IMG/VR virus record: IMGVR_UViG_2778261035_000005
DNA length: 64,000 nt
Source: a virus
Lineage: Duplodnaviria; Heunggongvirae; Uroviricota; Caudoviricetes
Reading direction: 5' to 3' (one strand)
Shown here piece after piece: positions 4,442 through 61,563 of this stretch. Position numbers and translations under genes: made by a program. The stretch's first letter is position 1. Each line of letters starts with the position of its first letter. Under the pieces are notes generated by a model. That model saw only the letters and a program-made list of their open reading frames with translations, was not told the DNA's origin and did no database searches.

Positions 4442-5578
4442 ACCAGTATTAGTCACGTACACATTGACCGAAAATGATTTAACTTCTGTGTTGAAGTTGT
4501 CAGTCATTACCGCGAGGTAGGCATTCTTGGTATCTCTGAATTGCTTCAGTATGATTTGAACGTTATCGGTGCAAACAAACGAGGTAGCCAGATTGCCTCC
4601 TTTCTCTGAAAAATCCTTCAGGAAGGTGCAGTCAACTTTGCCATCATTAGCGGTGAAGGTAGCATCATCACCCTGCCAGGTAAATGTAGCGTTAACGCCC
4701 TTATCAATGGATTTAGCAATAAGTCGCTGGGTGGCGGATTTTGTTTTGGCTTTGGAAGCCGGCGCTCGATATTTGCCGCTTTCTTTCAGTTCTGCAATGT
4801 AATCACAGCCATTTTTATCTTCTTTATCACAAGCAGCCTGATAAAGCTCAGCTGCTTTTTTATAGTCTTTTTTAACCCCTTCACCATACTCATACATAAT
4901 GCCAAGATTTGTCATGGCATCGGCGTTTCCGAGTTCAGCAGCTTTTTTATACCACTTAATTGCTTCGGCATCGTTGCGTTTAACACCTAAACCGTCATCG
5001 TATAAGGTGCCTAATGCGAACATGCCATCTGAACTACCTTGATCCGCCGCTTTTTTGTAATAAGTAAAAGCTTTTTTATAACTCTTTTGTACACCTTTAC
5101 CATATTGGTAATACGCACCAAGAAGGTAGCTAGCTTTAACATACCCGGCATCAGAGGCTAGATTGAAGTATTTAATGGCGAGCGCATGATCTACTTTACC
5201 AAGCATCCCCTTTTGATAAATAGCACCAAGATTGTTATAGGCTCTACCTTCACGAGCATCTCCCGCAAGTTTGTAGTACTCAACTGCTTTATTTAAGTCT
5301 TTATCTACACCCTCGCCAAATGTGTACATAACCCCAAGTGCATAATATGCTACTTTGTCTCCCTTTTCTGCAGCGAGATCAATCCACTTCTTGGCCTCAA
5401 CTACATCCTTATCAAAACCATTGATACCATCAAAATAATTTGTCCCTAACTCACTTTGTGCTGCGGTATCCCCTGCGGTAGCGGCTTCTATCAGCGTTTG
5501 TTTATTGTCTGCGTTAACGAATCCAGAGCTAAAAAGCAAAGTTAATGCCAGCAACGATGAAGATTTTATGTATTTCAT
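4433..5578 (-). CDS. secreted Sel1-like repeat (TPR-like) protein
   Basis: signal peptide MKYIKSSSLLALTLLFSSGFVNA; repeated A..W/Y..AA..G...A...LG..Y..G.GV..D units; only minus-strand gene in its neighbourhood. Confidence 0.7.
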   Translation of the reverse strand: MKYIKSSSLLALTLLFSSGFVNADNKQTLIEAATAGDTAAQSELGTNYFDGINGFDKDVVEAKKWIDLAAEKGDKVAYYALGVMYTFGEGVDKDLNKAVEYYKLAGDAREGRAYNNLGAIYQKGMLGKVDHALAIKYFNLASDAGYVKASYLLGAYYQYGKGVQKSYKKAFTYYKKAADQGSSDGMFALGTLYDDGLGVKRNDAEAIKWYKKAAELGNADAMTNLGIMYEYGEGVKKDYKKAAELYQAACDKEDKNGCDYIAELKESGKYRAPASKAKTKSATQRLIAKSIDKGVNATFTWQGDDATFTANDGKVDCTFLKDFSEKGGNLATSFVCTDNVQIILKQFRDTKNAYLAVMTDNFNTEVKSFSVNVYVTNTGSN

Positions 5579-5811
5579 ATTTTTTGTTCTGTTGATATAG
5601 GATGAACAGTTTAGACGCGGCAAGTGTCAAGTGTGCGAAAAATGGTACTTAAATTTAGTTAATATGTCAGCTTTGTTGATTTAGTTTATGGTCGGTAAAG
5701 TTACTAGGAAACTAATAACCATAAGAAATAGTACGTCATTTAATTATTGTGGCACTGCTCGTGTTTTGATTAACTAATACCTGCGATAAATATAAATAAA
5801 GGGAAGCCAAC

Positions 5812-6225
5812 ATGAGCAAAAATAAGCTGATTTTAACAGGAGCTTTATTGTCTTTGTTTGCTTTAGTGGGGTGTAAGCCTACAGACGAGAAGGCTATTGC
5901 TCTGGGCCAACAAGCAATTGCGGATGATATGAAAGATCCCACGTCGGTGATGTTTAGGAAAGATAAGTTTGTCAGGACTGATCATGACGATGGGAGTGTG
6001 ACAGGCTTTGTGTGCGGAGAATTGAACGCCAAAAATGGCTTTGGTGCATACGTGGGCTATCACTCATATGTTGTTGAACTCGAAATGAAGCCAAAGGGCA
6101 TGTTTTCGAAAGGGGTGGTATACAAAATCCTATCGAAGTCGTTGGCACCTAATGATCCTCATGACTTACAGCGTTATAAGCAGGTCTACAGAAAGATGTG
6201 CAACAGTGAGGCTGTAGCTCATTAA
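5812..6225 (+). CDS. lipoprotein of unknown function
   Basis: signal peptide with lipobox LFALVGC; SD agggaag upstream. Confidence 0.6.
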   Translation: MSKNKLILTGALLSLFALVGCKPTDEKAIALGQQAIADDMKDPTSVMFRKDKFVRTDHDDGSVTGFVCGELNAKNGFGAYVGYHSYVVELEMKPKGMFSKGVVYKILSKSLAPNDPHDLQRYKQVYRKMCNSEAVAH

Positions 6226-6350
6226 TGGTGAATGCCGGGCAGACTATAAGCCCGGCATCTTCGTATAGGGAACTATTGCGCCTAAAATGATAAGTAGATA
6301 CATACTTAGTTTTTTGTAAGAATACTTTCATCTGTTAGCTAGGAGTTGGT

Positions 6351-7127
6351 ATGAAAGACGAAATTCAGAAATTGGCCTGTGACATCATTGATAAAACAGG
6401 TTTAGAAATCAGCGAGGGCAGTCGACTAGACATCATTGGAAAGGCCGTCAATACAGCAATGAATCATATCGCTGCTCGTATGGACGAGATCCCGCTACCA
6501 GGGTTGCCTTATCTGAAAGTTGAGTTACACGTATGGGGCGAACCTTCTTGTGCACGGCGTTCTGCATTAGTTGTTTTTATTAGCAAAGAAAACCCGCTCA
6601 GTCTTAAAGTGCAGGTTGGAGCATGGCTTGATGGCAGAGTGATCTACACAAATACCGTTTTTTGTCTTTCAAACGACGAAACTATTGAAGCGGCCATTCA
6701 AGAAGCAGTTCTAGCAATGCGCAGCAGCGGTTTGATGAAGAATAACTACGAAGAGTACTTGCGTTCGATAAGTGGTGAAAAGACATTATCTCTGAAAGCA
6801 GATTTCGTTACCCCGAAAAATCTGTTGGAAGTTTTGATTAATAAAGGGGCTAATAGTGCCGTAAATGTAATCAGAGAGAGTGAATACGCGTCTCTTTGGG
6901 ATATGTGCAAAAGCCAGTTGGATCTTGTGCATATCGTTGTTGATGCGGGGAAGGCTTGTGATGGCGTAATGGCGGAATTTGCTGGGAAGATGGTCAGGAT
7001 TGCTAACGAATTACCGATGATTAAGCAAGAGGCTAAATCATACGCCACCAATCATGTCACAGAGCTTCTTGCCCCTTATCGCTTAGAAAGCGATCAGCGC
7101 AAGATGATTAGCTGGGGAAGTTGGTAA
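6351..7127 (+). CDS. hypothetical protein
   Basis: ORF track; aggag SD before ATG. Confidence 0.5.
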   Translation: MKDEIQKLACDIIDKTGLEISEGSRLDIIGKAVNTAMNHIAARMDEIPLPGLPYLKVELHVWGEPSCARRSALVVFISKENPLSLKVQVGAWLDGRVIYTNTVFCLSNDETIEAAIQEAVLAMRSSGLMKNNYEEYLRSISGEKTLSLKADFVTPKNLLEVLINKGANSAVNVIRESEYASLWDMCKSQLDLVHIVVDAGKACDGVMAEFAGKMVRIANELPMIKQEAKSYATNHVTELLAPYRLESDQRKMISWGSW

Positions 7128-9160: not shown

Positions 9161-9359
9161 ACGGGAGAAGGAAACACTTTATGAAATCAGTAAGTGGCCG
9201 GAGTTCCCTGAGTACTGGAAGCCTAAAACGCGGGCTAAGTTAGAGCGGTTAGGGTTGGTTGCAAACGTTTCTGAAACGAGGGGGTCGGCCAACTACCAGT
9301 TAACTGATAAAGGGAAAGTATTGCTACAGCAATTAGTAGAATCAGGAGCGTTAAAATGA
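9144..9359 (+). CDS. hypothetical protein
   Basis: ORF track; aaggag SD 9 nt upstream. Confidence 0.45.
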   Translation: MIVLSKREKETLYEISKWPEFPEYWKPKTRAKLERLGLVANVSETRGSANYQLTDKGKVLLQQLVESGALK

Positions 9360-9508
9360 TTCCATACATCTCATTAGCTTTTATGGGTGGCTTTCTTATC
9401 GGCTTCGGCATCTGTCGTGATTTAATTAAGCAGGAACTTAAAACCAAAACACTGTGCATCGGAAAGCGTGTGTATCGGGTAGTTCATGAAACAAAGGTTA
9501 GAAAATGA
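9356..9508 (+). CDS. small membrane protein (50 aa, not in ORF track)
   Basis: ATGA overlap with upstream stop; MIPYISLAFMGGFLIGFGIC; start codon lies inside repeated AATGATTCCATAC element. Confidence 0.4.
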   Translation: MIPYISLAFMGGFLIGFGICRDLIKQELKTKTLCIGKRVYRVVHETKVRK

Positions 9509-10147: not shown

Positions 10148-10574
10148 AAAGCGGCGACGTAGCCCGGCTGGTATGGTTAGCCAGCACACAACGTTGAGGC
10201 CATTACATTTTTATCAATTCTAAGGTTCTATTCACAGAGATACCGGCGAGCGTTGATATGTAACATGTTGGGCAAACATTCAATCGGAGTAGTGGCCTCA
10301 ACGTTGTGAAGACAGGATAGTTGTGTAGGTTTAACCACTGTTGCCATTGGTGCCTGTTTTCACAACAAATGATTCCATACATCACATTGTATAAATTACA
10401 AAGTAAGTGCAGTCCTCAGAAACATCATCTACTTAAAGATTTTGCCTTCTACTATTGAGCGAAGTCGAAAGCGTCTGGCACTAACGAAAAGTGCAAGTAG
10501 CGGTGCGTTTCCTGGCAGAAACTAAACCGTCGCGATTGGCACTGTTGAGTAATAAATACTGGCAGTGCCGAATT

Positions 10575-11211: not shown

Positions 11212-12492
11212 TTAATTAAAACCGAATGAATCAAGTTCTGCTTTTAATTTATCGACCATTTTTTCAACTTCAACCACAATTTCGCCAATCACCTTTTCTT
11301 TGTGTTGATTAGAGCTAAGTTCAAAATAGGCGTTATATAACGCATAACGAGACAGAAAATTTCTAATCTCATTAGCGGGTCTAATGGTGTAGCCATCGGT
11401 TAACACGATATCGGTCTGTCTAGAGTGCTTCTCGTTGAGTTTTATTAGCCGCTTTATCTGTTTTTCATCCTTGAGCACTATCACTTTGTTAGCTGCAATT
11501 TCAAGCTCCCAGCCGACAAAATAACGCAGCGTAGAATTTAATTTAGCCACTTCCTCGGCTGCAATTTCCATTTTCAGCTCAATGTAGTTTCGCATATGCA
11601 TAGGTAGGTCATTAAATCTTTGCAGCAAATGTTGTCGGCAGGGGTTGTTGTAAGACCAAAGAACTGCAAACGTAAGCCTATGATAACAGCTTATCGCATT
11701 GGTATTACAGGCCGAATCACCAACAATCATGCGATCAACATAAAACTCTACGTCTTTTTGGTATTCTTTATTGAATATATCAGCGGCATAGGTGTCCAGG
11801 TAATGAACTTTAGATATTGCATCTTCAAAGAAAAGTTCATTTTCGAAGAAGTTGTATTTGTTCAGGAGACGATAAAGTTTCTTTGCGTCGTAGGTTTTGC
11901 TATTGTCGACATTAAGACCAAAAATAGCAATCAGCAGACTTACTTTTGGACTAATGCTGTTGCGCAGTTGTTCTATGTAAGATCTCTTTTCACTATCCGC
12001 AGATGACGGCAGATAGAAGTCTTTATCTACATAATTTAGAATTAAAATAATGTGGTTAACATACTTAATATAAACAGGGTTTTTTGTTGCATAGTAATAA
12101 ACGCCCTTGACGACTTTTATATTCAATTTCAAATTGTACTGACTATCATCCAGTAAGGTTTTGTTAACATCCTCAAGTAATTTATTATGCTGTTCAAGTA
12201 ATATGCCGTACCATTCCTTAAAAGAAGATTTTTTCATTTCAAGAAGCGAAGCCGCCGTCAGCCTGGTCGCTCTCATTGCCGCCTTTGCACTATGCCTTGC
12301 CTCATAAGCGGCCCATGCTGTGGCTAAAAAGGCAAGTGAAGTAGCAAGCGTACCTATAACCTCTACGTTTTCCTTGACGGTATCCCAGAAAATAATCATC
12401 ACTGTCCCAAGTATGAGGATTAACAAAACAGGCATTTTATCAGTGTCTTTGGTTAATTTTGAAACTGAATGATACCTAATCGACCATACCAT
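11212..12492 (-). CDS. hypothetical membrane-anchored protein, A+T-rich (candidate exclusion/defence cargo)
   Basis: ORF track; two N-terminal hydrophobic helices then ~350 aa soluble domain; strongly A+T-rich versus neighbours; alternative ATG at 12435. Confidence 0.55.
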   Translation of the reverse strand: MVWSIRYHSVSKLTKDTDKMPVLLILILGTVMIIFWDTVKENVEVIGTLATSLAFLATAWAAYEARHSAKAAMRATRLTAASLLEMKKSSFKEWYGILLEQHNKLLEDVNKTLLDDSQYNLKLNIKVVKGVYYYATKNPVYIKYVNHIILILNYVDKDFYLPSSADSEKRSYIEQLRNSISPKVSLLIAIFGLNVDNSKTYDAKKLYRLLNKYNFFENELFFEDAISKVHYLDTYAADIFNKEYQKDVEFYVDRMIVGDSACNTNAISCYHRLTFAVLWSYNNPCRQHLLQRFNDLPMHMRNYIELKMEIAAEEVAKLNSTLRYFVGWELEIAANKVIVLKDEKQIKRLIKLNEKHSRQTDIVLTDGYTIRPANEIRNFLSRYALYNAYFELSSNQHKEKVIGEIVVEVEKMVDKLKAELDSFGFN

Positions 12493-13050: not shown

Positions 13051-13075
13051 AAAAAGGCCCATATGGGCCTTTTTC
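13051..13075. terminator. bidirectional intrinsic terminator
   Basis: aaaaaggcccatatgggcctttttc perfect hairpin with flanking A and T runs. Confidence 0.75.
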
Positions 13076-13196: not shown

Positions 13197-13751
13197 TCAA
13201 TCTTCCCTTTGTTTTGGGTAGTGTTGTGTTCGTATCGCATAGGAAGCTCCGTCATTTAAATAAGTTAGGCCACGCTCTTGTGTAAATCTCTTCACATATC
13301 TCTTGTATGTGGCCATCAGTTCTTCGCGTTCTGCCGCAAAGAATAAAATCTGTATGCCTTCATTGTCGGCAACTTTGAGCATTAAGTCAACTAAAGTACC
13401 GTAAAGGTATTGAAGTTCACCTAAAGTAAGATTAAAAGACCCTTCGGGTTTGGCAAATACGTTAATTGGCTCTTCCGCTCCAAGAGCGACATTCTGGAGC
13501 TGTTCTTGCTGCCTGTCAAGTTGAATCATGTCCACAAAACTAACGACAGATACACACAACCCATAAACATCAGCACCTAACATATTATGCATAGTTTCTG
13601 CGGCAACAGGATCTAAAGAAGGAGGGCAAAAGACTAAACGGTATCTAGCCTTACGAGCTTCATTGCCAGAGAAAACAAAGTCTATATCTAAATATGACAG
13701 ATCACCCGGCAATGAAGCCAAACCAGGTGTAACCAACTTATGCAAGTGCAT
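13197..13751 (-). CDS. hypothetical protein
   Basis: ORF track; agaggga SD upstream of ATG on minus strand; divergent from recombinase gene. Confidence 0.5.
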   Translation of the reverse strand: MHLHKLVTPGLASLPGDLSYLDIDFVFSGNEARKARYRLVFCPPSLDPVAAETMHNMLGADVYGLCVSVVSFVDMIQLDRQQEQLQNVALGAEEPINVFAKPEGSFNLTLGELQYLYGTLVDLMLKVADNEGIQILFFAAEREELMATYKRYVKRFTQERGLTYLNDGASYAIRTQHYPKQRED

Positions 13752-13887
13752 CTGTCTCGAATCCCTCTTTATTAGTATAAGTTGTCTTATTGTACCCTAC
13801 CAAACGTTTATATGCATTGTTATGTATTATTTTGATTTTCAATATTACCTCCTAGAACGAAGGGTAGATTTCAAAAAACGCACCCTC

Positions 13888-13920
13888 AATGATTCCATAC
13901 CTACTATGTATGGAATCATT
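13888..13920. other. lox/dif-like recombination core site candidate (13-bp inverted arms, 7-bp spacer)
   Basis: AATGATTCCATAC-CTACTAT-GTATGGAATCATT perfect inverted repeat 98 bp upstream of recombinase ATG. Confidence 0.5.
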
Positions 13921-14018
13921 ACTGAAAATGAGTTACTTTTACTCTTGATCCTATAAGAATCTATGCCTAATATACTGTTTACTTATACAGTGCATCGGCG
14001 TAACTCGGTGATTGTCAT

Positions 14019-15122
14019 ATGAAAAATAGCTTTGACAGAGCACGCGCTGCGGAGAACACCTCAAAAGAGGCGATTGAGTATCTCGAAAGAGCATCTCAAA
14101 TGCAGGCCGTTATGATCTCCCAGGTCAGCAATGACATGAGATTCTCGGACGCATTCATGTTATTCACTCGCTTATCTCTGCTGATAACAAGACGTCGGCC
14201 AGAGATCGCTGTTCATTGTATTTTGATACATGTTTTGCCGCACATTGCCGATGTAAAAGTAAGTGATATTAATAGGTTCATGGTGAACCAACTGGTCAAC
14301 CCACTAATACTGGATGGCAAAATTGTTATGGGTCGCCGCGTTTTCTCTCTGATGAAGCAGTTCCTCAGCTGGTGCGCCTTCCAGGGGATGATCGACGTGT
14401 CACCGTTAAACGATATGTCACTTAACAAAGTTGCCGGTGGCGCAAAGCCCACACCTCGCGAGCGGAAGCTAACCGACGCAGAGGTATGGGTGTTCTGGAA
14501 TATATGGGACTACTTCAATGTGTGTGCTGGTACAAAATGGGCGGCCAGGCTATGTCTTGTATCCGCAAGACGACCTGACGAAGTACTGCGGGCTAAAAAA
14601 AGTGAGTTCAACCTCCAGCGTGGGGTTTGGAATCAAGGCAAGAGAAACAAATCAGCCCGTGAGCATTCTCTGCCTTTAAGCACATTAATGCGCACATGCA
14701 TTGAAGAGTTATTCGAATATGGTAAAGGCAGCCAGTGGCTTGTGCCTTCGAATAAAAAAATCGGGAAAGATCTTCCGATGTCTAAAGTGGCAATAGCCCA
14801 GGCATTACGCCGTATCCTGGAACGACCAGAACTGATGGAGCTTGAGCCATTTACACCACGAGATTTGCGTCGTACTGCGCGTAGTTACTTCCCAGCATTA
14901 GGCATAAGCCAGGAGGTATCACGTAAAATCATGAACCACAGTCTTGAGGGGATAGATCGGGTCTACGACCGGCACGATTATATGGACGAGATGCGAGACG
15001 CCTTAGAAAGTTTCTCGACGTACATCGCATCAATCGTAGAGCAACCGGATTTAGACGAAATTGACCACAAATTCAAGGGAGATCGTCTATCGACAGAGCT
15101 TATTCGTGTAAATTTTTCATAG
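14019..15122 (+). CDS. tyrosine site-specific recombinase (integrase/resolvase family)
   Basis: C-terminal catalytic region PRDLRRTARSYF...HSLEGIDRVYDRHD (R, HxxR, Tyr); N-terminal ~120 aa lacks an obvious arm-binding domain. Confidence 0.75.
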   Translation: MKNSFDRARAAENTSKEAIEYLERASQMQAVMISQVSNDMRFSDAFMLFTRLSLLITRRRPEIAVHCILIHVLPHIADVKVSDINRFMVNQLVNPLILDGKIVMGRRVFSLMKQFLSWCAFQGMIDVSPLNDMSLNKVAGGAKPTPRERKLTDAEVWVFWNIWDYFNVCAGTKWAARLCLVSARRPDEVLRAKKSEFNLQRGVWNQGKRNKSAREHSLPLSTLMRTCIEELFEYGKGSQWLVPSNKKIGKDLPMSKVAIAQALRRILERPELMELEPFTPRDLRRTARSYFPALGISQEVSRKIMNHSLEGIDRVYDRHDYMDEMRDALESFSTYIASIVEQPDLDEIDHKFKGDRLSTELIRVNFS

Positions 15123-15503
15123 AGACTTTATGGCCTCAACAACCTTTTGTGATGCGCCTTTCTCTTTACCGAATCGCTCGTTATATGCAGCAAGAACCTG
15201 TTTTTCGTCCTCGTTAAGAGGAGCAGTGCCTTCTTTGTATAAAAATGCTGCGAGTTCGGGTTGGCGTTCTTCCAGCACCATCATCATAAGACGACTTGGC
15301 TCAATACCCAGTGCCAGCGCCAGCGGACGAACCTTATCGATAGGCAAAGGAATTTTGCCGCTTTTAATTAAAGAAAGGTTGTTGGCGTTTTTATACCCAA
15401 TTGTTTTGGCTATCTGGGCCTGGCTCATAGGTGAGGATTCAATCAACCCTGCGATAAAAGCAGCGTAGCGACTTTCTATAAATTCAATCTTGTTGTCAGA
15501 CAT
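15117..15503 (-). CDS. XRE-family HTH transcriptional regulator (repressor-like)
   Basis: HTH-like MSQAQIAKTIGYKNANNLSLIKSGK; divergent from small ORF; palindromic motif in its upstream region. Confidence 0.6.
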   Translation of the reverse strand: MSDNKIEFIESRYAAFIAGLIESSPMSQAQIAKTIGYKNANNLSLIKSGKIPLPIDKVRPLALALGIEPSRLMMMVLEERQPELAAFLYKEGTAPLNEDEKQVLAAYNERFGKEKGASQKVVEAIKSL

Positions 15504-15534
15504 TGTTACAACCTTTGCGCGTTCAATTCTCTCT

Positions 15535-15548
15535 GGTAAGTGCTTACC
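15535..15548. promoter_or_regulatory. palindromic operator-like site GGTAAG-TG-CTTACC in regulator promoter region
   Basis: perfect inverted repeat; member of motif family recurring in >=15 intergenic regions. Confidence 0.4.
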
Positions 15549-15754
15549 GATATTACATCAAAGGTTAGGGTTGTAAAGCTATTATCATTTTTTTCGGCAG
15601 GCACTTTAAAGACCGGACAAAGACCAATGCATGGTGAAAAACTAGCCCCAAATAGGTAAGAAAATTAACTTGCATCTAATATGGATGTATTCAGTATTGA
15701 TATAAATTTTAGTAGTATTCCTTACAATAGTATAAGTAAGAATGGATTGATTGA

Positions 15755-15967
15755 ATGAACACCACTATTTCCAGCCTAATAGCTCTTGAGATCGGACACG
15801 TACAAAAATTAGCTGATGAGTGTGTAGCTGACATCCTCACCGAGCTACCGAATGAGCAGATTGAGGTTGGTGTGAATGACACAACTGGCTTTATATTCGA
15901 ACTTAACAACAAACGCTTCACGCTTATCAATACCGGCTCCGGGTCTTTAGCCGTCAGAACCTGTTAA
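15755..15967 (+). CDS. small hypothetical protein (Cro-like position)
   Basis: ORF track; divergent from XRE regulator. Confidence 0.4.
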   Translation: MNTTISSLIALEIGHVQKLADECVADILTELPNEQIEVGVNDTTGFIFELNNKRFTLINTGSGSLAVRTC

Positions 15968-16065
15968 TCCCTCTTCTACCTGCGCGAATGGCTTAGTTCC
16001 CTGTTCGCGCAGTGCTACATTAAACACACTAGTAAATAATTTGTTTTCATAACAAAGGATTAGCC

Positions 16066-18174
16066 ATGTCCAAAAAACGTTCCATCAAAGAGGTTCAGGA
16101 CTTCCGTGACAGTGTAAAACGAGTAGTCGCTCTCCTTTCAGGTAAAAACATCCCTGTTGCAGAACGAGGGGACGACGCTTATGTACGCTATAACGATGAT
16201 GGAGAGCCAATTCTCGTAAACATCCCATCAATCCCAGATAACGCAACACCGGCATTGATGAATGCAGTACGCGGATTTCTAGATCATGAAGTTGCTCACA
16301 TTTTGTTTACCGATATTCATGTGTCCAACAAAATGAGAGAAAAAGGACACGTCCCTTCCTGGTCACTATGGAATGCCTTAGAAGACGTGTTCATCGAGCG
16401 AAAAATGGGGCAGGTCTTTAACGGAACAAGACGTAATCTGATGGCAACTCAGCGCCTGATAATCGAAAAAGTCTTTAAACCAAAGGCTTCAGAGGCTATT
16501 ACTTATTGTGGCAAAGATCAGCGCGCGCTTTTTCTAAACTTCTTTCTCTGTCCGGTTGTAAGAGCCTGGGATGGCCAAGCACCGTTCGTAGATTTCATGG
16601 ATGAATACTGGCCTGTCATTGAGAAACCAATTTCATTATTAAAAGAACATGGTATCGATGTGGCCGTGCGTAACATGTCTTGCACCGAGGATTGTTTAAA
16701 GGTGGCTGCGACCATAGCTAAGATCCTCAAAGACACAGAAAGTGAAAGCAAAGGTAAGGAGTCAGCTCCGGGAAAAACTCCCGATCCTTCAGACGCTGAC
16801 CAAGCGGATTCCTCTGGAGAAAGTAATGAAGACAATGAAGATCACAAGACACATGAGATGCTAGATAACCACATATCTATAGATGATGAGTCACACGGTA
16901 AGTACATACATGATGATAACGATAGTGATGATTCAGATAATTCTGAATCATCAGAAACAATATTCGATGATACAAAAAATGATAAAGAGGTATTAGATTC
17001 TGATACTTCCAATAGCGCGACGACAGAAGCAACTACCTCGGATCACGAAAAAAGAAAAACGGCAGAAGACGGCTCTTCAGACATTCCCACTCCGTCCAAA
17101 ATGAGTCTGGAAGAGGCTTTAGAGGAGCTTGATAGCATGGAAGATGAAGTCGGAGGCATGACAGAAGATGCACTATCCGAAACGATTAAAAGCGAGTTAA
17201 CAGAAAGCTCGAAAAGCGAATACAGGCCATACAATCGCTCATACGACTTCATCGGTTCGATTGATCAGGCAGAAGCCCATATCAAACGGCTTATTAAAAC
17301 ATTCTCCGATATTGATTTAGGTGGATATCCAATCAGCCGTTATCGCATCGTTCCTGAAGGCAACCAACTCTTCGACAAATATATTGAAAAGCATCTTTCG
17401 TCAGGTGTTTCGTCGACGCTGGCAAAAGACCTGGAGCGTGCAATTGCAAGCAGAAACAGAGTTCAGTTTATACCGGGCCAGCGTCGGGGGCGCATTCATG
17501 GTTCTAGTATCTACAGATTAGCAATGAATGATGATCGCGTGTTTCGTAAAAAAGAAGAATCTAAGGCCGTTAACGCCTGTGTTCAACAAGTGATTGATTT
17601 ATCAGGTTCAATGAGCGGCGAAACGATTAAACTGGCTCTTGCAAGTGCATATACCATCGCCGATGCGCTTGATCGAATAAATGTTCCCAACATTATCACC
17701 GGCTTCACAACATTTGGTAGTCATATGGCAGCAGGAGAGCTTAAGGCAATCAAGTATGAGTTCTCTCGCTTTGAATCTTTAATGCTACCTATCATCAAAA
17801 ATTGGAATGAAAAGGCAAATTCTCGCGAAGTTCGCTCACGTATGGGGTGCGTAGGCTACACATTCCCACTTCTTAATAACGTGGATGGTGAAAGCATAGC
17901 CAGCCTTGCATCGTTATTTTCTGGTCGCATGGAGGACAAGAAGATCATGCTTGTTCTAAGCGATGGCGCGCCGTGGGCTGTTGGGAGAGGTTTTGACGCT
18001 CATTTGCGTTCGGTTGCGAAGCAAATTGAAACGCAGACTGACATTGATTTGATGGCAATTGGCATCATGACTGACGCACCGGAGAGATTTTACGCAAACC
18101 ATGCCCTAGTAACGAGCGTTGATAGTCTTGGTTCATCTGTAGTTACTGAACTATCTCGTATCATTTTGAAGTGA
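16066..18174 (+). CDS. cobT: CobT-like protein with von Willebrand factor A domain
   Basis: MIDAS motif VIDLSGSMSG; long acidic Asp/Glu/Ser-rich linker; adjacent CobS-like ATPase. Confidence 0.65.
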   Translation: MSKKRSIKEVQDFRDSVKRVVALLSGKNIPVAERGDDAYVRYNDDGEPILVNIPSIPDNATPALMNAVRGFLDHEVAHILFTDIHVSNKMREKGHVPSWSLWNALEDVFIERKMGQVFNGTRRNLMATQRLIIEKVFKPKASEAITYCGKDQRALFLNFFLCPVVRAWDGQAPFVDFMDEYWPVIEKPISLLKEHGIDVAVRNMSCTEDCLKVAATIAKILKDTESESKGKESAPGKTPDPSDADQADSSGESNEDNEDHKTHEMLDNHISIDDESHGKYIHDDNDSDDSDNSESSETIFDDTKNDKEVLDSDTSNSATTEATTSDHEKRKTAEDGSSDIPTPSKMSLEEALEELDSMEDEVGGMTEDALSETIKSELTESSKSEYRPYNRSYDFIGSIDQAEAHIKRLIKTFSDIDLGGYPISRYRIVPEGNQLFDKYIEKHLSSGVSSTLAKDLERAIASRNRVQFIPGQRRGRIHGSSIYRLAMNDDRVFRKKEESKAVNACVQQVIDLSGSMSGETIKLALASAYTIADALDRINVPNIITGFTTFGSHMAAGELKAIKYEFSRFESLMLPIIKNWNEKANSREVRSRMGCVGYTFPLLNNVDGESIASLASLFSGRMEDKKIMLVLSDGAPWAVGRGFDAHLRSVAKQIETQTDIDLMAIGIMTDAPERFYANHALVTSVDSLGSSVVTELSRIILK

Positions 18175-19711: not shown

Positions 19712-22700
19712 CTTCTCTCTTGGGGAGTCGGCTCTAAAAGCAGAAAACGCGGTGAAGATTGCCAGAGAAGCTGGCTACACCGCTGTAATTTCGGCAGATA
19801 GCATGAATATTGCGAGTGTTATTCCACTACAACGTGCCGCTGGTGACGACATGGCGGTTATTTGTGGTGTGAAACTAAACATTGTTGATGATCCCACATA
19901 CGAGCACCGGGCTAAACTTGCTAAAGAGTCTATGGGATGTATGGAATCATTAGAGCGTGGGCGGAACTACTCCTTTACCGCTCTAATTAAAAATGAGCAG
20001 GGATATCGAGACATCTGCGAACTAATGACGGCGGCCAACACACGAGAACAGTTCTACTTTGTACCGCGTCTCTCGCTCGAACAGTTGGTTTCTACATATG
20101 CCAAAGGCAACATCATCCTGCTCACTGCCGACATCGGTAGCGTGTTCCAACGCAACGATTTTGCAAAAATCATAAGCTCACTGATTACAGCGGGTGGAAA
20201 AGACAACTTCTATAGTGTGGTTTATCCGCACCCTACCCCATTCTACGACCAGATTAACGTCCGGGCGATGAAAGTCGCCAGCGCACTGAAAATAGAGCCA
20301 GTAGCGTTCTATCCCGCTTATTACGAATCGATCGACGATGCAGACATTAAAGACATTGCGCACATGGTTACGAACAACATCAAAATCGACCAGCCGCATC
20401 GTCTGCGTATCCCCCACCAGCGAGATAACGCCGTCAATGGTCGCCGCCATCTCCTTGAGGCGCTGAAAGCCTTCTCCGTTCGCATGGATGTGCCGGTAAC
20501 AGCTGCAATGGCCTCAACAACGCAGGATACCATTATCGATGCCTGCACATGGCGCTGGCATGAATTGCCACCAGCACTGCCAAAGATGGCAGACGACGAG
20601 CCTGCAACGCTGATGAAACTGGCCGTTGCTGGGCTGCGTAAACGTCTTACCACAAAAGAGTTTGGCTACACACCACCGGCTTCTGAGAACAGGGTTTATG
20701 TTGAGCGACTTAAGTACGAAATGGACACGCTTACTCGCCTGGGATTTTGTGGTTACTTCCTGATGGTACGCGATCTGATGAATCACAGCCGTGAAACTGG
20801 CATTCCTGTCGGGCCTGGTCGTGGTTCCTCCGCTGGCTCTTTGGTGGCATGGTGCATAGGCATAACCAACGTCGACCCTATCCGTCACGGTCTTCTGTTT
20901 GAACGTTTCATCAACCCTGAGCGTCTCGACTTGCCAGATGCGGACTTGGACTTCAGCCAGGCACGTCGCCATGAGGTGATCGAGTATCTGAATGAACGCT
21001 ACGGCGAAGATTACGTTGCAGGCATTCCGAACTTCACCTACCTGGGCGCGGCCTCTGCACTACGTGACACCGCTCGTATTTATGGTGTGGAGTCCGCAGA
21101 TATGGCGGTATCAAAAGAACTGAAGAACGTCGAGGATGATAGCCTTCCATTGGAAGAGCTGCGCGAACAACTGGCAAGCCTCGACAAATACGCGACAAAA
21201 TATCCTGATGCATTCAATGCAGCCTGCAAGTTACAAAGCCTTATGCGTGGCTATGGTAGACATGCGGCAGGGATGATCGTAGCAGGTGTTCCTCTGACAG
21301 AACGAACACCGGTTGAACGACGTGGTGACGCGCGTTGTATCGCATTTGACAAGCGTTACTGCGAGGCTATGGGCCTAATTAAGCTGGACGTACTTGGCCT
21401 GGCGACTCTCGATTTGCTCGATAGTGCAAAACGCTACATTAAAGAGAACACAGGTGAGGATATCAATCTTGATGCCATTTCTCTTGAAGATCGCAAGGTG
21501 CTGGATGGTTTTGCTGCTGGGTACACTCAAGGTGTTTTCCAGCTTGAATCAGGCCCAATGCGCAAGCTGCTTAAAGATTTAGGTGGTGGAATTGAGCCAA
21601 TGAGCTTTAAAACGGTCGTTGCTACGACTGCGCTCTTCCGGCCGGGGCCAATTCAGTCAGGCATGTTGGATGATTATGTTTCTGTCGCCAAAGGCTTTAT
21701 GACGCCGGAATCATTACACCCCGTTCTTGATGAACTTACCGCAGAAACAAATGGCGTGATTCTTTATCAGGAACAGACGATGAACGCGACTCGATTGCTT
21801 GCGGGCTTCACAATGGCTGAAGCTGACGGCGTTCGTAAAGCGATCGGCAAAAAAGACATGGAGAAAATGAAGAGCATGGGTGAGAAGTTCATCGTTCAGG
21901 CTCAAGCTGGCTGGATAGACGTTGAGCTGGAAGATGGCACTACACAGCGCATTCACCGTGCGGAACATTTTAAATGCGAAGACGGAACACTGAAAACTGT
22001 CGAAGAGGCGCTTGAACACGGCGCAAAACTACCTATAAACGCAGTACGCGTGACAGCGTCACACCCAGGGCTATCAGAGATGAAAGCGAAGGAGATCTGG
22101 ACCGCATTCGAAAAAAATGGTGCCTACCAGTTCAACAAATCACACTCTGTTGCTTACTCCTTGATCAGTTATCAATCTATGTGGTTGAAAACTCATTATC
22201 CCGCAGAGTTTTTCGCTGCTGCTCTCACTATTCTTGGCGAAGATAAACACCAGGGGCTGGTTAAAGATGCGCTGACCTATGGTATTCGCGTATTGCCACC
22301 AGACGTTAACGTGTCATCCAACCGAATCGAGATCCGCACGCTTGAAGATGGCAGCCAGGTGCTGTATGCGCCCTTCTCTGCTGTGAAGGGGTGTTCTGAG
22401 AATGGCTGCCAAGCCATCATGAGAGCGCGAGAAAAAGTTGGCGGCAAATTCGAGTCACTGGCGCAATTCGAAGAAGCTGTCGAGAAACGTGCCTGTAATA
22501 GTCGAGTGCGCGAATCGCTGCAAAAAGTAGGGGCGTTTGCATCCATCGAGCCAGGTAGTCTGCCAGCAACTGATCCAGAGCGCCTACGCGACCAGGCTGA
22601 ATTGATGGGAAACCTTGTCATAGACGCAGTTAAAGCCTCACGTCCGTTTGAGATGAACCCCAAACGTTCGGCTGAGATTAACGTGCTCATGACACGGATG

Positions 22701-23204: not shown

Positions 23205-23344
23205 ACAAAGCGAACACCATGAAGGTGGCCAAAGAGCAAAGAGTTTATGGAAGTAAACAAGATTGGCGATGTGAGACAGTACAGGCTGAAGCGCCAGACC
23301 AGAGTCACGCTATCCAATATTTTTGGTAAGAAAGTCGCCTAATG

Positions 23345-23370
23345 AAAAGCTCGTCAATTGACGAGCTTTT
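23345..23370. terminator. bidirectional intrinsic terminator
   Basis: aaaagctcgtc-aatt-gacgagctttt hairpin between convergent genes. Confidence 0.7.
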
Positions 23371-23377
23371 CATTTGA

Positions 23378-61137: not shown

Positions 61138-61157
61138 TACTGTATGCATATACAGTA
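61138..61157. promoter_or_regulatory. LexA (SOS) box
   Basis: TACTGTATGCATATACAGTA, perfect CTGT-N8-ACAG, 17 bp upstream of the umuD'-like ATG. Confidence 0.75.
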
Positions 61158-61173: not shown

Positions 61174-61563
61174 ATGGGCTTCCCTTCTCCTGCGGCGGAT
61201 TATGCTGAGAGCCGTATTTCTCTTGATCAGCAGATAATTAGACATCCTTCAGCGACCTACTTCATGAGGGCAGCTGATAGTCATCATCGTGAGGGAATAT
61301 TACAGGGTGCATTGCTGGTGGTCGATTCCTCACTTACCCCGGTTGATGGTTCTCTGCTTGTATGCGCTCTGGATGGGGAATATCGCGTAAAAAGATACCG
61401 GAAGTATCCACGTCAGCATCTGGAGGATTTAAGAACCGGTAAGAAGGAAGCATTGCCAAAGGATGACGATGGATGCACGGGCAGCAATGCCGTGTTTGGT
61501 GTGATCACTCACATTATCAACGACGCAAGAAGTGGCGAGTTTGATGATTGTCCCGTGATGTAG
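61174..61563 (+). CDS. UmuD'-like protein (S24 peptidase fold, begins at the position of the UmuD cleavage site)
   Basis: GFPSPAADYAESRISLDQQIIRHPSATYF aligns to UmuD from the cleavage-site Gly; Ser and Lys catalytic positions present; LexA box upstream. Confidence 0.8.
   Translation: MGFPSPAADYAESRISLDQQIIRHPSATYFMRAADSHHREGILQGALLVVDSSLTPVDGSLLVCALDGEYRVKRYRKYPRQHLEDLRTGKKEALPKDDDGCTGSNAVFGVITHIINDARSGEFDDCPVM

Follow-up and report, generated by a model that had tools for sequence, protein, structure and literature searches.

In the Cre-loxP system of bacteriophage P1, a tyrosine recombinase without an arm-binding domain works on a simple palindromic site that is present once per plasmid prophage, and the role of Cre in P1 is the resolution of plasmid multimers (PMC7969092). 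Other sites of the Cre type, such as pox of Panto and nox of Nigri, were found by mining, being predicted as 13-N-13 palindromes in the intergenic DNA beside a plasmid-borne recombinase gene and afterwards validated (PMC4957104); their enzymes are relatives of Cre (23-41% identity), unlike the recombinase considered here. Here we describe a locus that resembles the P1 system in layout, in a 64,000-nucleotide stretch of Caudoviricetes DNA (IMG/VR record IMGVR_UViG_2778261035_000005; the whole stretch is referred to as the window), where a perfect 33-bp palindrome stands 98 bp upstream of the ATG of int, a tyrosine recombinase gene (open reading frame, ORF, 14019-15122). Comparison of sequences leads us to consider it almost certain that the palindrome is the adjacent recombinase's own target, and probable that the two make up a self-contained multimer-resolution module resembling Cre-loxP, in which the site overlaps the promoter of the gene. 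The route taken to this reading has worked before, since the Panto/pox-type sites were predicted in the same way and then validated.

The site consists of a left arm AATGATTCCATAC (13888-13900), the spacer CTACTAT (13901-13907) and a right arm GTATGGAATCATT (13908-13920). The first-pass annotation, made from the letters of the window alone, had read it as a perfect 13-7-13 inverted repeat at this distance from the recombinase gene, and so it proved: the arms are complementary at 13 of 13 positions and pairing reaches partly into the spacer (94% for 16-nt arms), the strictly conserved part of each arm being 12 nt, ATGATTCCATAC. The resulting 12/13-7-12/13 layout differs from the 13-8-13 of loxP in having a spacer of 7 bp and not 8, but the trait typical of the Cre family, a simple palindromic target beside the gene without arm sites, was found at 136 loci, 38-148 bp upstream of the gene. 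Sites of the Xer/dif type, which are served by the host proteins XerC and XerD, are 11-6-11 with distinct arms, whereas here both arms are the same and the site is accompanied by a recombinase gene of its own. When the window was simulated 100 times with a first-order Markov model, the mean number of perfect inverted repeats having arms of at least 13 bp and a spacer of at most 20 bp was 0.01, compared with four loci in the real sequence; the other three (23341, 48091 and 60810) have A/T runs beside their stems and resemble terminators, which the palindrome at 13888 does not.

The spacer is always 7 bp long and variable in sequence, and complementary bases are very rare at its two ends, where positions 1 and 7 read C..A or T..G. 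Asymmetry of this kind gives a recombination site its direction, although the lineages are not independent and the observation is suggestive only. Both orientations of the spacer relative to int occur, even in close relatives (CTATTAA versus TTAATAG), which is harmless for a resolution site. On the side of the palindrome away from int, at a fixed distance, lies the conserved element TGAAATCT, which is kept also on plasmids of Pantoea and Rahnella and could be either a site for an accessory factor or part of a divergent promoter.

When the DNA upstream of int was aligned among relatives from Escherichia, Salmonella, Klebsiella and Cronobacter (~74-78% DNA identity), the 12-nt arms ATGATTCCATAC/GTATGGAATCAT were found unchanged amid scrambled intergenic DNA and a differing 7-bp spacer. 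With Yersinia and Kluyvera included, the arms are invariant and the flanks diverge, and conservation of the palindrome in homologous elements, on which the first-pass annotation had made its reading depend, extends across six genera. More distant relatives, in which Int is 44-50% identical, have a palindrome of the same geometry at the same position with arms altered symmetrically at two positions ((A/G)TGACTCCAGAC...GTCTGGAGTC(A/G)), and the type of arm follows the protein clade: ATGATTCCATAC is found with Int of at least 57% identity and (A/G)TGACTCCAGAC with Int of 44-52%.

The link between site and gene was examined in two ways. In the first, which began with the DNA, a scan of a single genome for each bacterial species for TGAYTCCAKAC-N7-GTMTGGARTCA yielded 58 loci. 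In 56 of these an Int homologue begins 38-148 bp away, on one and the same side of the palindrome throughout, and the remaining two lie at the edge of the fetched stretch. Starting from the recombinase protein, 80 viral contigs were retrieved and the palindrome was present in all 80, in 79 of them at 96-100 bp from the gene and in one displaced by a 2-kb insertion; in this contig (L142) the insertion, of ~2 kb, occupies 4963-7001, between the palindrome and int, in the region of the LexA box and promoter. The 158 arms in the viral contigs show zero variation, versus seven variants of the spacer. In Erwinia, Pantoea, Rahnella and Ewingella the module lies among metabolic, transporter and H-NS-like genes with no phage genes, on contigs of 100-900 kb, four of which are labelled plasmids. 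A homologue of the neighbouring helix-turn-helix (HTH) repressor is detectable at only 10 of the 62 palindrome-carrying genome loci. Int is the only constant partner of the site, because the module also occurs on Pantoea, Erwinia and Rahnella plasmids that have neither phage genes nor this repressor, and we hold with high confidence, by association across these sequences, that the recombinase is the protein predicted to read the arms. The palindrome as an operator of the HTH repressor was rejected, the repressor being absent from ~50 of the 62 site-carrying loci. A 108-kb, plasmid-sized contig of Yersinia pestis NCTC5923 (L015) has the same site, with the spacer CTATTAA, and an Int that is 87% identical, and the module therefore extends to the Y. 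pestis lineage.

A palindrome may also be a terminator, a structured RNA or a DNA cruciform rather than a site bound by protein, and here the RNA fold is stable (plus strand, -18.8 kcal/mol; minus strand, -25.6 kcal/mol; z scores of about -5), changes in the arms keep the pairing and many relatives have a minus-strand T-run 8-10 nt past the stem. Any perfect palindrome folds well, however; no T-run abuts the stem, a terminator scan found nothing at the palindrome, the site lies upstream of both flanking promoters and the symmetry runs into the would-be loop. The arm sequence itself is frozen, with only two versions in ~60 species, and unpaired lone copies of the arm, described below, are conserved to the base. 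With no adjacent T-run, a negative scan, frozen arms and conserved lone copies, a hairpin function was rejected and is in our opinion highly improbable.

As to the enzyme, Pfam recognizes PF00589 (6e-10), with PF22022, the central domain of P4-type integrases, sub-threshold, and no arm-binding domain, which agrees with the earlier description of a clear catalytic C-terminus and no recognisable arm-binding N-terminal domain; NCBIfam returned nothing beyond a far sub-threshold integrase domain match. The arm-binding domain PF13356 (DUF4102) is absent from all homologues of at least 42% identity and present in matches of 34% or less, so that the arm-binding integrases, clustering with which would by the first-pass annotation have told against its reading, appear only as an outgroup. 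An AlphaFold2 (AF2) model (predicted local distance difference test, pLDDT, 85.5) has the two-domain clamp formed by core-binding and catalytic domains, and residues 1-45 are, according to the model and the alignment of homologues, a short, helical, unconserved N-terminus. In 44 homologues, down to 42% identity, R184/R185, K211, R281-D-L-R284 and Y316 are invariant and H307 is nearly so, by which the catalytic set of tyrosine recombinases (R185, K211, R284, H307 and Y316) is conserved; since these residues, including Y316, are invariant across the family, catalysis appears to be under selection.

The resemblance to Cre does not extend to ancestry. The top Foldseek matches are lambda Int 75-356 (E 4e-7, template modelling score, TM, ~0.57), Tn1549 Int, XerH/XerA and IntI, the last of these being mid-ranking, while chains of Cre rank 36th or lower with E of at least 0.02; a phmmer search against all PDB chains gave no match at E of 1 or less. 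There is consequently no detectable sequence relationship to Cre, only a weak fold match (E 0.02). The nearest outgroup consists of the P4-type (DUF4102/PF13356) integrases, at 26-34% identity, with PF22022 and PF00589 common to both, but these have the N-terminal arm-binding domain that is missing here and a tRNA-derived core with arm sites in place of a simple palindrome, and the recombinase described here was never seen integrated. The enzyme is a recombinase of the lambda/P4 lineage that has lost its arm domain and is not a member of the Cre family, though in function it would group with the simple recombinases and may work like Cre.

The region of the window around the palindrome is 100% identical to the Escherichia coli plasmid pWP4-S18-ESBL-07_2 and 99.8% identical to pLF82, which is deposited as Escherichia phage Cyrano. 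Judged by its sequence, the window belongs to an SSU5-like phage-plasmid of ~108-110 kb, which is circular and non-mobilizable and encodes a helicase, primase, ligase and DnaE of its own together with tRNAs and siphovirus structural genes. As a circular phage-plasmid maintained as a plasmid, the element has no prophage junction, which accords with the earlier remark that the recombinase sits mid-element rather than at a junction, and in E. coli the gene and the site are plasmid-only. Among 5,426 complete E. coli genomes, int is present in 248, at 250 places, all of them plasmids, and the exact 37-bp site in 206, once each, only on plasmids and never annotated; no chromosomal copy of either gene or site was found in these 5,426 genomes. 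The 180 PLSDB plasmids with the site have one copy each, with nothing annotated there by RefSeq, and no two-site cointegrates or dimers were found among the 206 E. coli genomes or the 180 plasmids.

These counts bear on whether the site is the core of an attP, through which the protein, as a true integrase, would insert the element into the chromosome or another replicon. That P4-type integrases are the nearest outgroup, that the fold is closest to lambda Int and that databases label the protein an integrase all speak for this, but chromosomal integration beside a split att, the trait of P4-type enzymes, was seen at none of the 250 places where the gene occurs, the site was intact and unsplit in all 138 loci examined, it is not tRNA-like, several of the replicons that host it are explicitly plasmids, and the protein has neither an arm-binding domain nor an adjacent excisionase-like gene. 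An attP for chromosomal integration was rejected for E. coli, gene and site being plasmid-only, and an integrative role in general is very unlikely.

The multimer-resolution reading follows from the presence of one intact site per replicon, the lack of integrated forms, intact catalytic residues, the absence of arm binding, expression in the lysogen and the occurrence of the module on unrelated large plasmids. In the mechanism that we infer, which takes in binding, the positions of cleavage, the outcome of resolution, autoregulation and LexA control, one recombinase monomer would bind each 12-bp arm and strands would be exchanged across the 7-bp spacer. Because the replicon is extrachromosomal and has one site, the relevant reaction would be recombination between two direct copies of the site in a dimer or multimer, which would return monomers and thereby favour stable inheritance in the manner of Cre-loxP in P1; a second role, in circularizing phage DNA on its entry, is possible. 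The first-pass annotation had preferred a Cre-like function in resolution or cyclisation to that of a prophage integrase: the conserved site, the missing arm domain and the plasmid-only distribution agree with it, while by sequence and fold the enzyme is lambda/P4-like, and resolution itself is something we infer.

The site appears to be embedded in regulatory DNA. In 60 unique sites from both arm clades, ~1 bit per position was found at +15, +16 and +20, corresponding to a conserved TAnnnT that may be a -10 element whose -35 would fall within the right arm, and in those clades where the palindrome is only 38-46 bp from the ATG the promoter must overlap the site. Recombinase bound at the right arm over this putative -35 would likely autoregulate int. 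Further downstream is a second promoter-like element, for which 8 of 12 consensus positions are matched, under the threshold of the scan tool, and whose assignment as a promoter is accordingly putative. Directly after this TTGATC-17-TAATAT comes a LexA-like block, TACTGT-N8-ACAGT; the form TACTGT-N8-ACAG has three matches at two loci in the 64 kb against 0.09 expected. Its CTGT and ACAG are retained in four genera while the middle varies, and the box is absent from more distant clades. In the Escherichia/Salmonella/Klebsiella lineage the second promoter would be controlled by LexA, giving more recombinase during the SOS response. The second locus is a LexA-box-like palindrome, TACTGTATGCATATACAGTA, at 61138-61157, which fits the consensus on either strand and shortly precedes an ORF of 129 aa (61174-61563). 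Since the window has no more than these two sites of the kind, it may mark another SOS-controlled gene, e.g., an antirepressor.

A promoter with a LexA box under SOS control is also known from the integron integrase IntI, likewise a tyrosine recombinase without an arm domain, whose attI site lies beside the gene promoter with variable cargo on the far side. The difference from integrons is that no attC-like cassette boundaries are present here and the cargo adjacent to the site has no second flanking site. Integron-like cassette insertion was rejected as an explanation for the variable DNA left of the palindrome, there being no second or hybrid site to bound it.

In the LF82 lysogen, int has 49.5 normalised counts versus 11-20 for its neighbours, about half the level of the repressor, and its transcript rises from log2 5.6 in lysogeny broth (LB) to 10.3 inside macrophages, ~25-fold, with neighbouring genes rising too. 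LF82 induces SOS inside macrophages. As the neighbours also rise, the increase is no more than consistent with the putative LexA control.

It is also conceivable, but unlikely, that the palindrome is an operator only, with Int or another dimeric regulator controlling divergent promoters of int and of the leftward cargo gene, and with recombination, if any, occurring elsewhere. The position of the conserved TAnnnT, 14 nt from the right arm, and the short distance from the ATG in some clades are both expected of an operator; phage repressors with the tyrosine-recombinase fold exist, phi3T SroF being among the fold matches; and the lone half-sites described below resemble dispersed operators. Against this, the invariance of the catalytic residues means that catalysis is under selection, no further repeat of a kind suitable for recombination turned up near int, a 12-7-12 layout with a spacer of fixed length suits a crossover site, and the HTH repressor is absent from most loci that have the site. 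This alternative mainly denies the recombination step, since autoregulation and recombination at one site are compatible.

In addition to the palindrome, the window contains exactly three further copies of the 12-mer arm, at 9356 (+), 10369 (+) and 19939-19950 (-), each extended to ATGATTCCATACATC, and no further copies with one mismatch or fewer were found in the window plus the other 42.5 kb of plasmid fetched (~106.5 of 110 kb). The same 15-mer occurs at the same positions in the Salmonella and Klebsiella relatives and in the contig L006, whose Int is 60% identical, while the flanks diverge. The copies lie 0.7-6 kb from the palindrome, inside or between phage replication genes, and no degenerate second arm was found beside any of them. 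In the 80 viral contigs, all 114 left copies are on the plus strand and all 103 right copies on the minus strand, so that every one points at the palindrome, although these copies represent only ~four independent positions. Where the 15-mer runs antisense within dnaE (GGA TGT ATG GAA TCA TT), four genomes show zero synonymous change while adjoining codons vary, and the G-C-M-E-S loop of DnaE differs in the Xenorhabdus and Providencia relatives; for these two reasons it is the DNA and not the peptide that seems to be selected. No lone copies of the variant arm were found within ±10 kb in these Xenorhabdus and Providencia relatives. Relatives from Salmonella, Kluyvera and Yersinia have a fourth copy within int, which is decayed here; coding constraint may explain part of its conservation, since it overlaps the conserved V-W-N-Q codons of Int.

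In the TnpI-IRS systems of Tn4430 and Tn5401, a tyrosine recombinase without an arm domain uses an inverted-repeat core together with extra copies of the same motif, which lie within ~100 bp of the core or in the terminal repeats; in Tn5401 the motif is also found in the distant transposon ends, and binding regulates transcription. The extra TnpI-binding motifs would, by analogy, perhaps be the nearest precedent for the lone half-sites, with a clear difference, as the lone motifs here are 0.7-6 kb from the core. Unlike loxP, moreover, the site described here overlaps its gene's promoter and is accompanied by a LexA box and by lone half-sites spread across 10 kb; the promoter-embedded site, the LexA box and the oriented, dispersed half-sites are three unusual features of the module. 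The first-pass annotation had noted none of these three, nor the presence of the module on megaplasmids that are not phages.

One tentative and rather doubtful proposal is that SOS-induced Int also occupies the three to four oriented half-sites, which lie among and around the replication and tRNA genes of the phage, as part of a larger architecture, serving either to make resolution selective over kilobases or as a regulator or roadblock of early phage functions, with antisense transcription from int possibly aiding induction. If this is true, it would be a recombinase-centred switch of a kind not described for any phage-plasmid. In the window and in the contigs L006-L008, no terminator was found between int and the convergent HTH repressor gene; a transcript begun at the LexA-box promoter would cross the repressor gene in antisense, a possible route of induction. 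The 3' ends of the two genes overlap by 6 bp here and by 15-31 bp in L006 and L008, and abut in L007, a Xenorhabdus relative.

Several observations weigh against multimer resolution as the function of the site. SOS induction is not obviously needed by a housekeeping resolvase, and a simple model of resolution would not lead one to expect the lone half-sites. A pure autoregulatory operator would likewise be a dyad, overlapping a promoter and covarying with the protein encoded next to it. In the H-x-x-R motif every member of the family has Arg (R281) in place of the first His, so that the chemistry departs slightly from the textbook set. Among related plasmids, homology breaks off close to the palindrome's left edge, with three classes of left flank and ~25 bp of semi-conserved flank beyond the arm, and because of this flank the breakpoints at 13888 are not clean site-specific junctions. 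Finally, the searchable literature contains no report of binding or recombination by this enzyme or at this site. It also yielded no paper on the function of this integrase or its motif, matches to the motif being unrelated primers only, and no characterisation of integrase function in SSU5, pHCM2, pMT1 or LPP-1. The pair thus represents an uncharacterised family of a familiar type, in which a simple tyrosine recombinase and a palindromic target beside its gene serve plasmid maintenance. The coordinates of the features are collected in Table 1.

Table 1. The palindromic site, its recombinase gene, and the associated regulatory elements and half-sites in the window.
Feature	Position	Strand	Remarks
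Full site, perfect 33-bp palindrome	13888-13920	.	arms 13888-13900 and 13908-13920, with the 7-bp spacer between
Conserved flank element TGAAATCT	13866-13873	-	information content peaks at -23 (1.6 bits) and -19 (1.2 bits), in both arm clades
Putative -35, TGGAAT	13911-13916	+	would fall within right arm; putative promoter assignment
Putative -10, conserved TAnnnT (TACTTT)	13934-13939	+	14 nt beyond the conserved 12 nt of the right arm
Second promoter-like element (TTGATC 13945-13950, 17 nt, TAATAT 13968-13973)	13945-13973	+	invariant block in Escherichia, Salmonella, Klebsiella and Cronobacter
LexA-box-like TACTGTTTACTTATACAGTG (CTGT-N8-ACAG)	13973-13992	.	overlaps the second -10
Tyrosine recombinase gene int (CYRAN_44 of phage Cyrano)	14019-15122	+	367 aa; PF00589; no arm-binding domain
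Putative HTH repressor (CYRAN_45)	15117-15503	-	convergent with int, 6-bp overlap (15117-15122); context only, not the binder of the palindrome
Lone half-site A, ATGATTCCATACATC	9356-9370	+	at the start codon of the 50-aa ORF CYRAN_38; same position in Salmonella and Klebsiella
Lone half-site B, ATGATTCCATACATC	10369-10383	+	intergenic, upstream of tRNA cluster; kept in Salmonella, Klebsiella, Cronobacter and L006, with diverging flanks
Lone half-site D, ATGATTCCATACATC	19936-19950	-	antisense within dnaE (codons G-C-M-E-S)
Decayed half-site E	14625-14636	-	within int; TTGATTCCAAAC here, TTGATTCCATACATC in Salmonella, Cronobacter, Kluyvera and Y. pestis relatives

Left of the palindrome, genes have been gained and lost so often that the DNA there is a hotspot of such change. 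The minus-strand ORF at 13197-13751 encodes 184 aa without a family match, corresponds to CYRAN_43 and is present in only some relatives; in the LF82 lysogen CYRAN_43 is reported to be transcribed 723-fold over background (PMC9928086). A further minus-strand ORF of 426 aa (11212-12492), with a weak match to putAbiC (a putative abortive-infection family, E 9e-4), sits in the variable region that runs from the tRNA cluster to the palindrome. Between the glutaredoxin gene and CYRAN_43 is a perfect 24-bp palindrome, AAAAAGGCCCATATGGGCCTTTTT (13051-13074), which looks like a bidirectional terminator common to these two convergent genes, and between the end of dnaE and a minus-strand ORF is a perfect 34-bp palindrome, AATGAAAAGCTCGTCAATTGACGAGCTTTTCATT (23341-23374), that is probably also a bidirectional terminator. 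In the Xenorhabdus relative L007, the AAA_5 ATPase gene downstream of cobT (14481-16802) contains a LAGLIDADG_3 domain, which suggests an intein or the insertion of a homing endonuclease.

SSU5-like phage-plasmids are common in clinical Enterobacterales and their maintenance has been little studied, and the module described here, present in 248 of the 5,426 complete genomes of E. coli, is also found in Klebsiella and Salmonella as well as on the 108-kb contig of Y. pestis. It represents a compact recombinase/site family that is unrelated to Cre and has two natural specificity classes only two arm positions apart, which makes it useful material for orthogonal genome-engineering tools and for the study of DNA recognition by recombinases. 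A real question is raised by the oriented half-sites, whose retention goes so far as to fix a peptide of DnaE. Tying an unannotated 33-bp site to the "integrase" of these elements turns a vague annotation into a testable system of plasmid maintenance, and one that is a possible target for curing SSU5-like plasmids.

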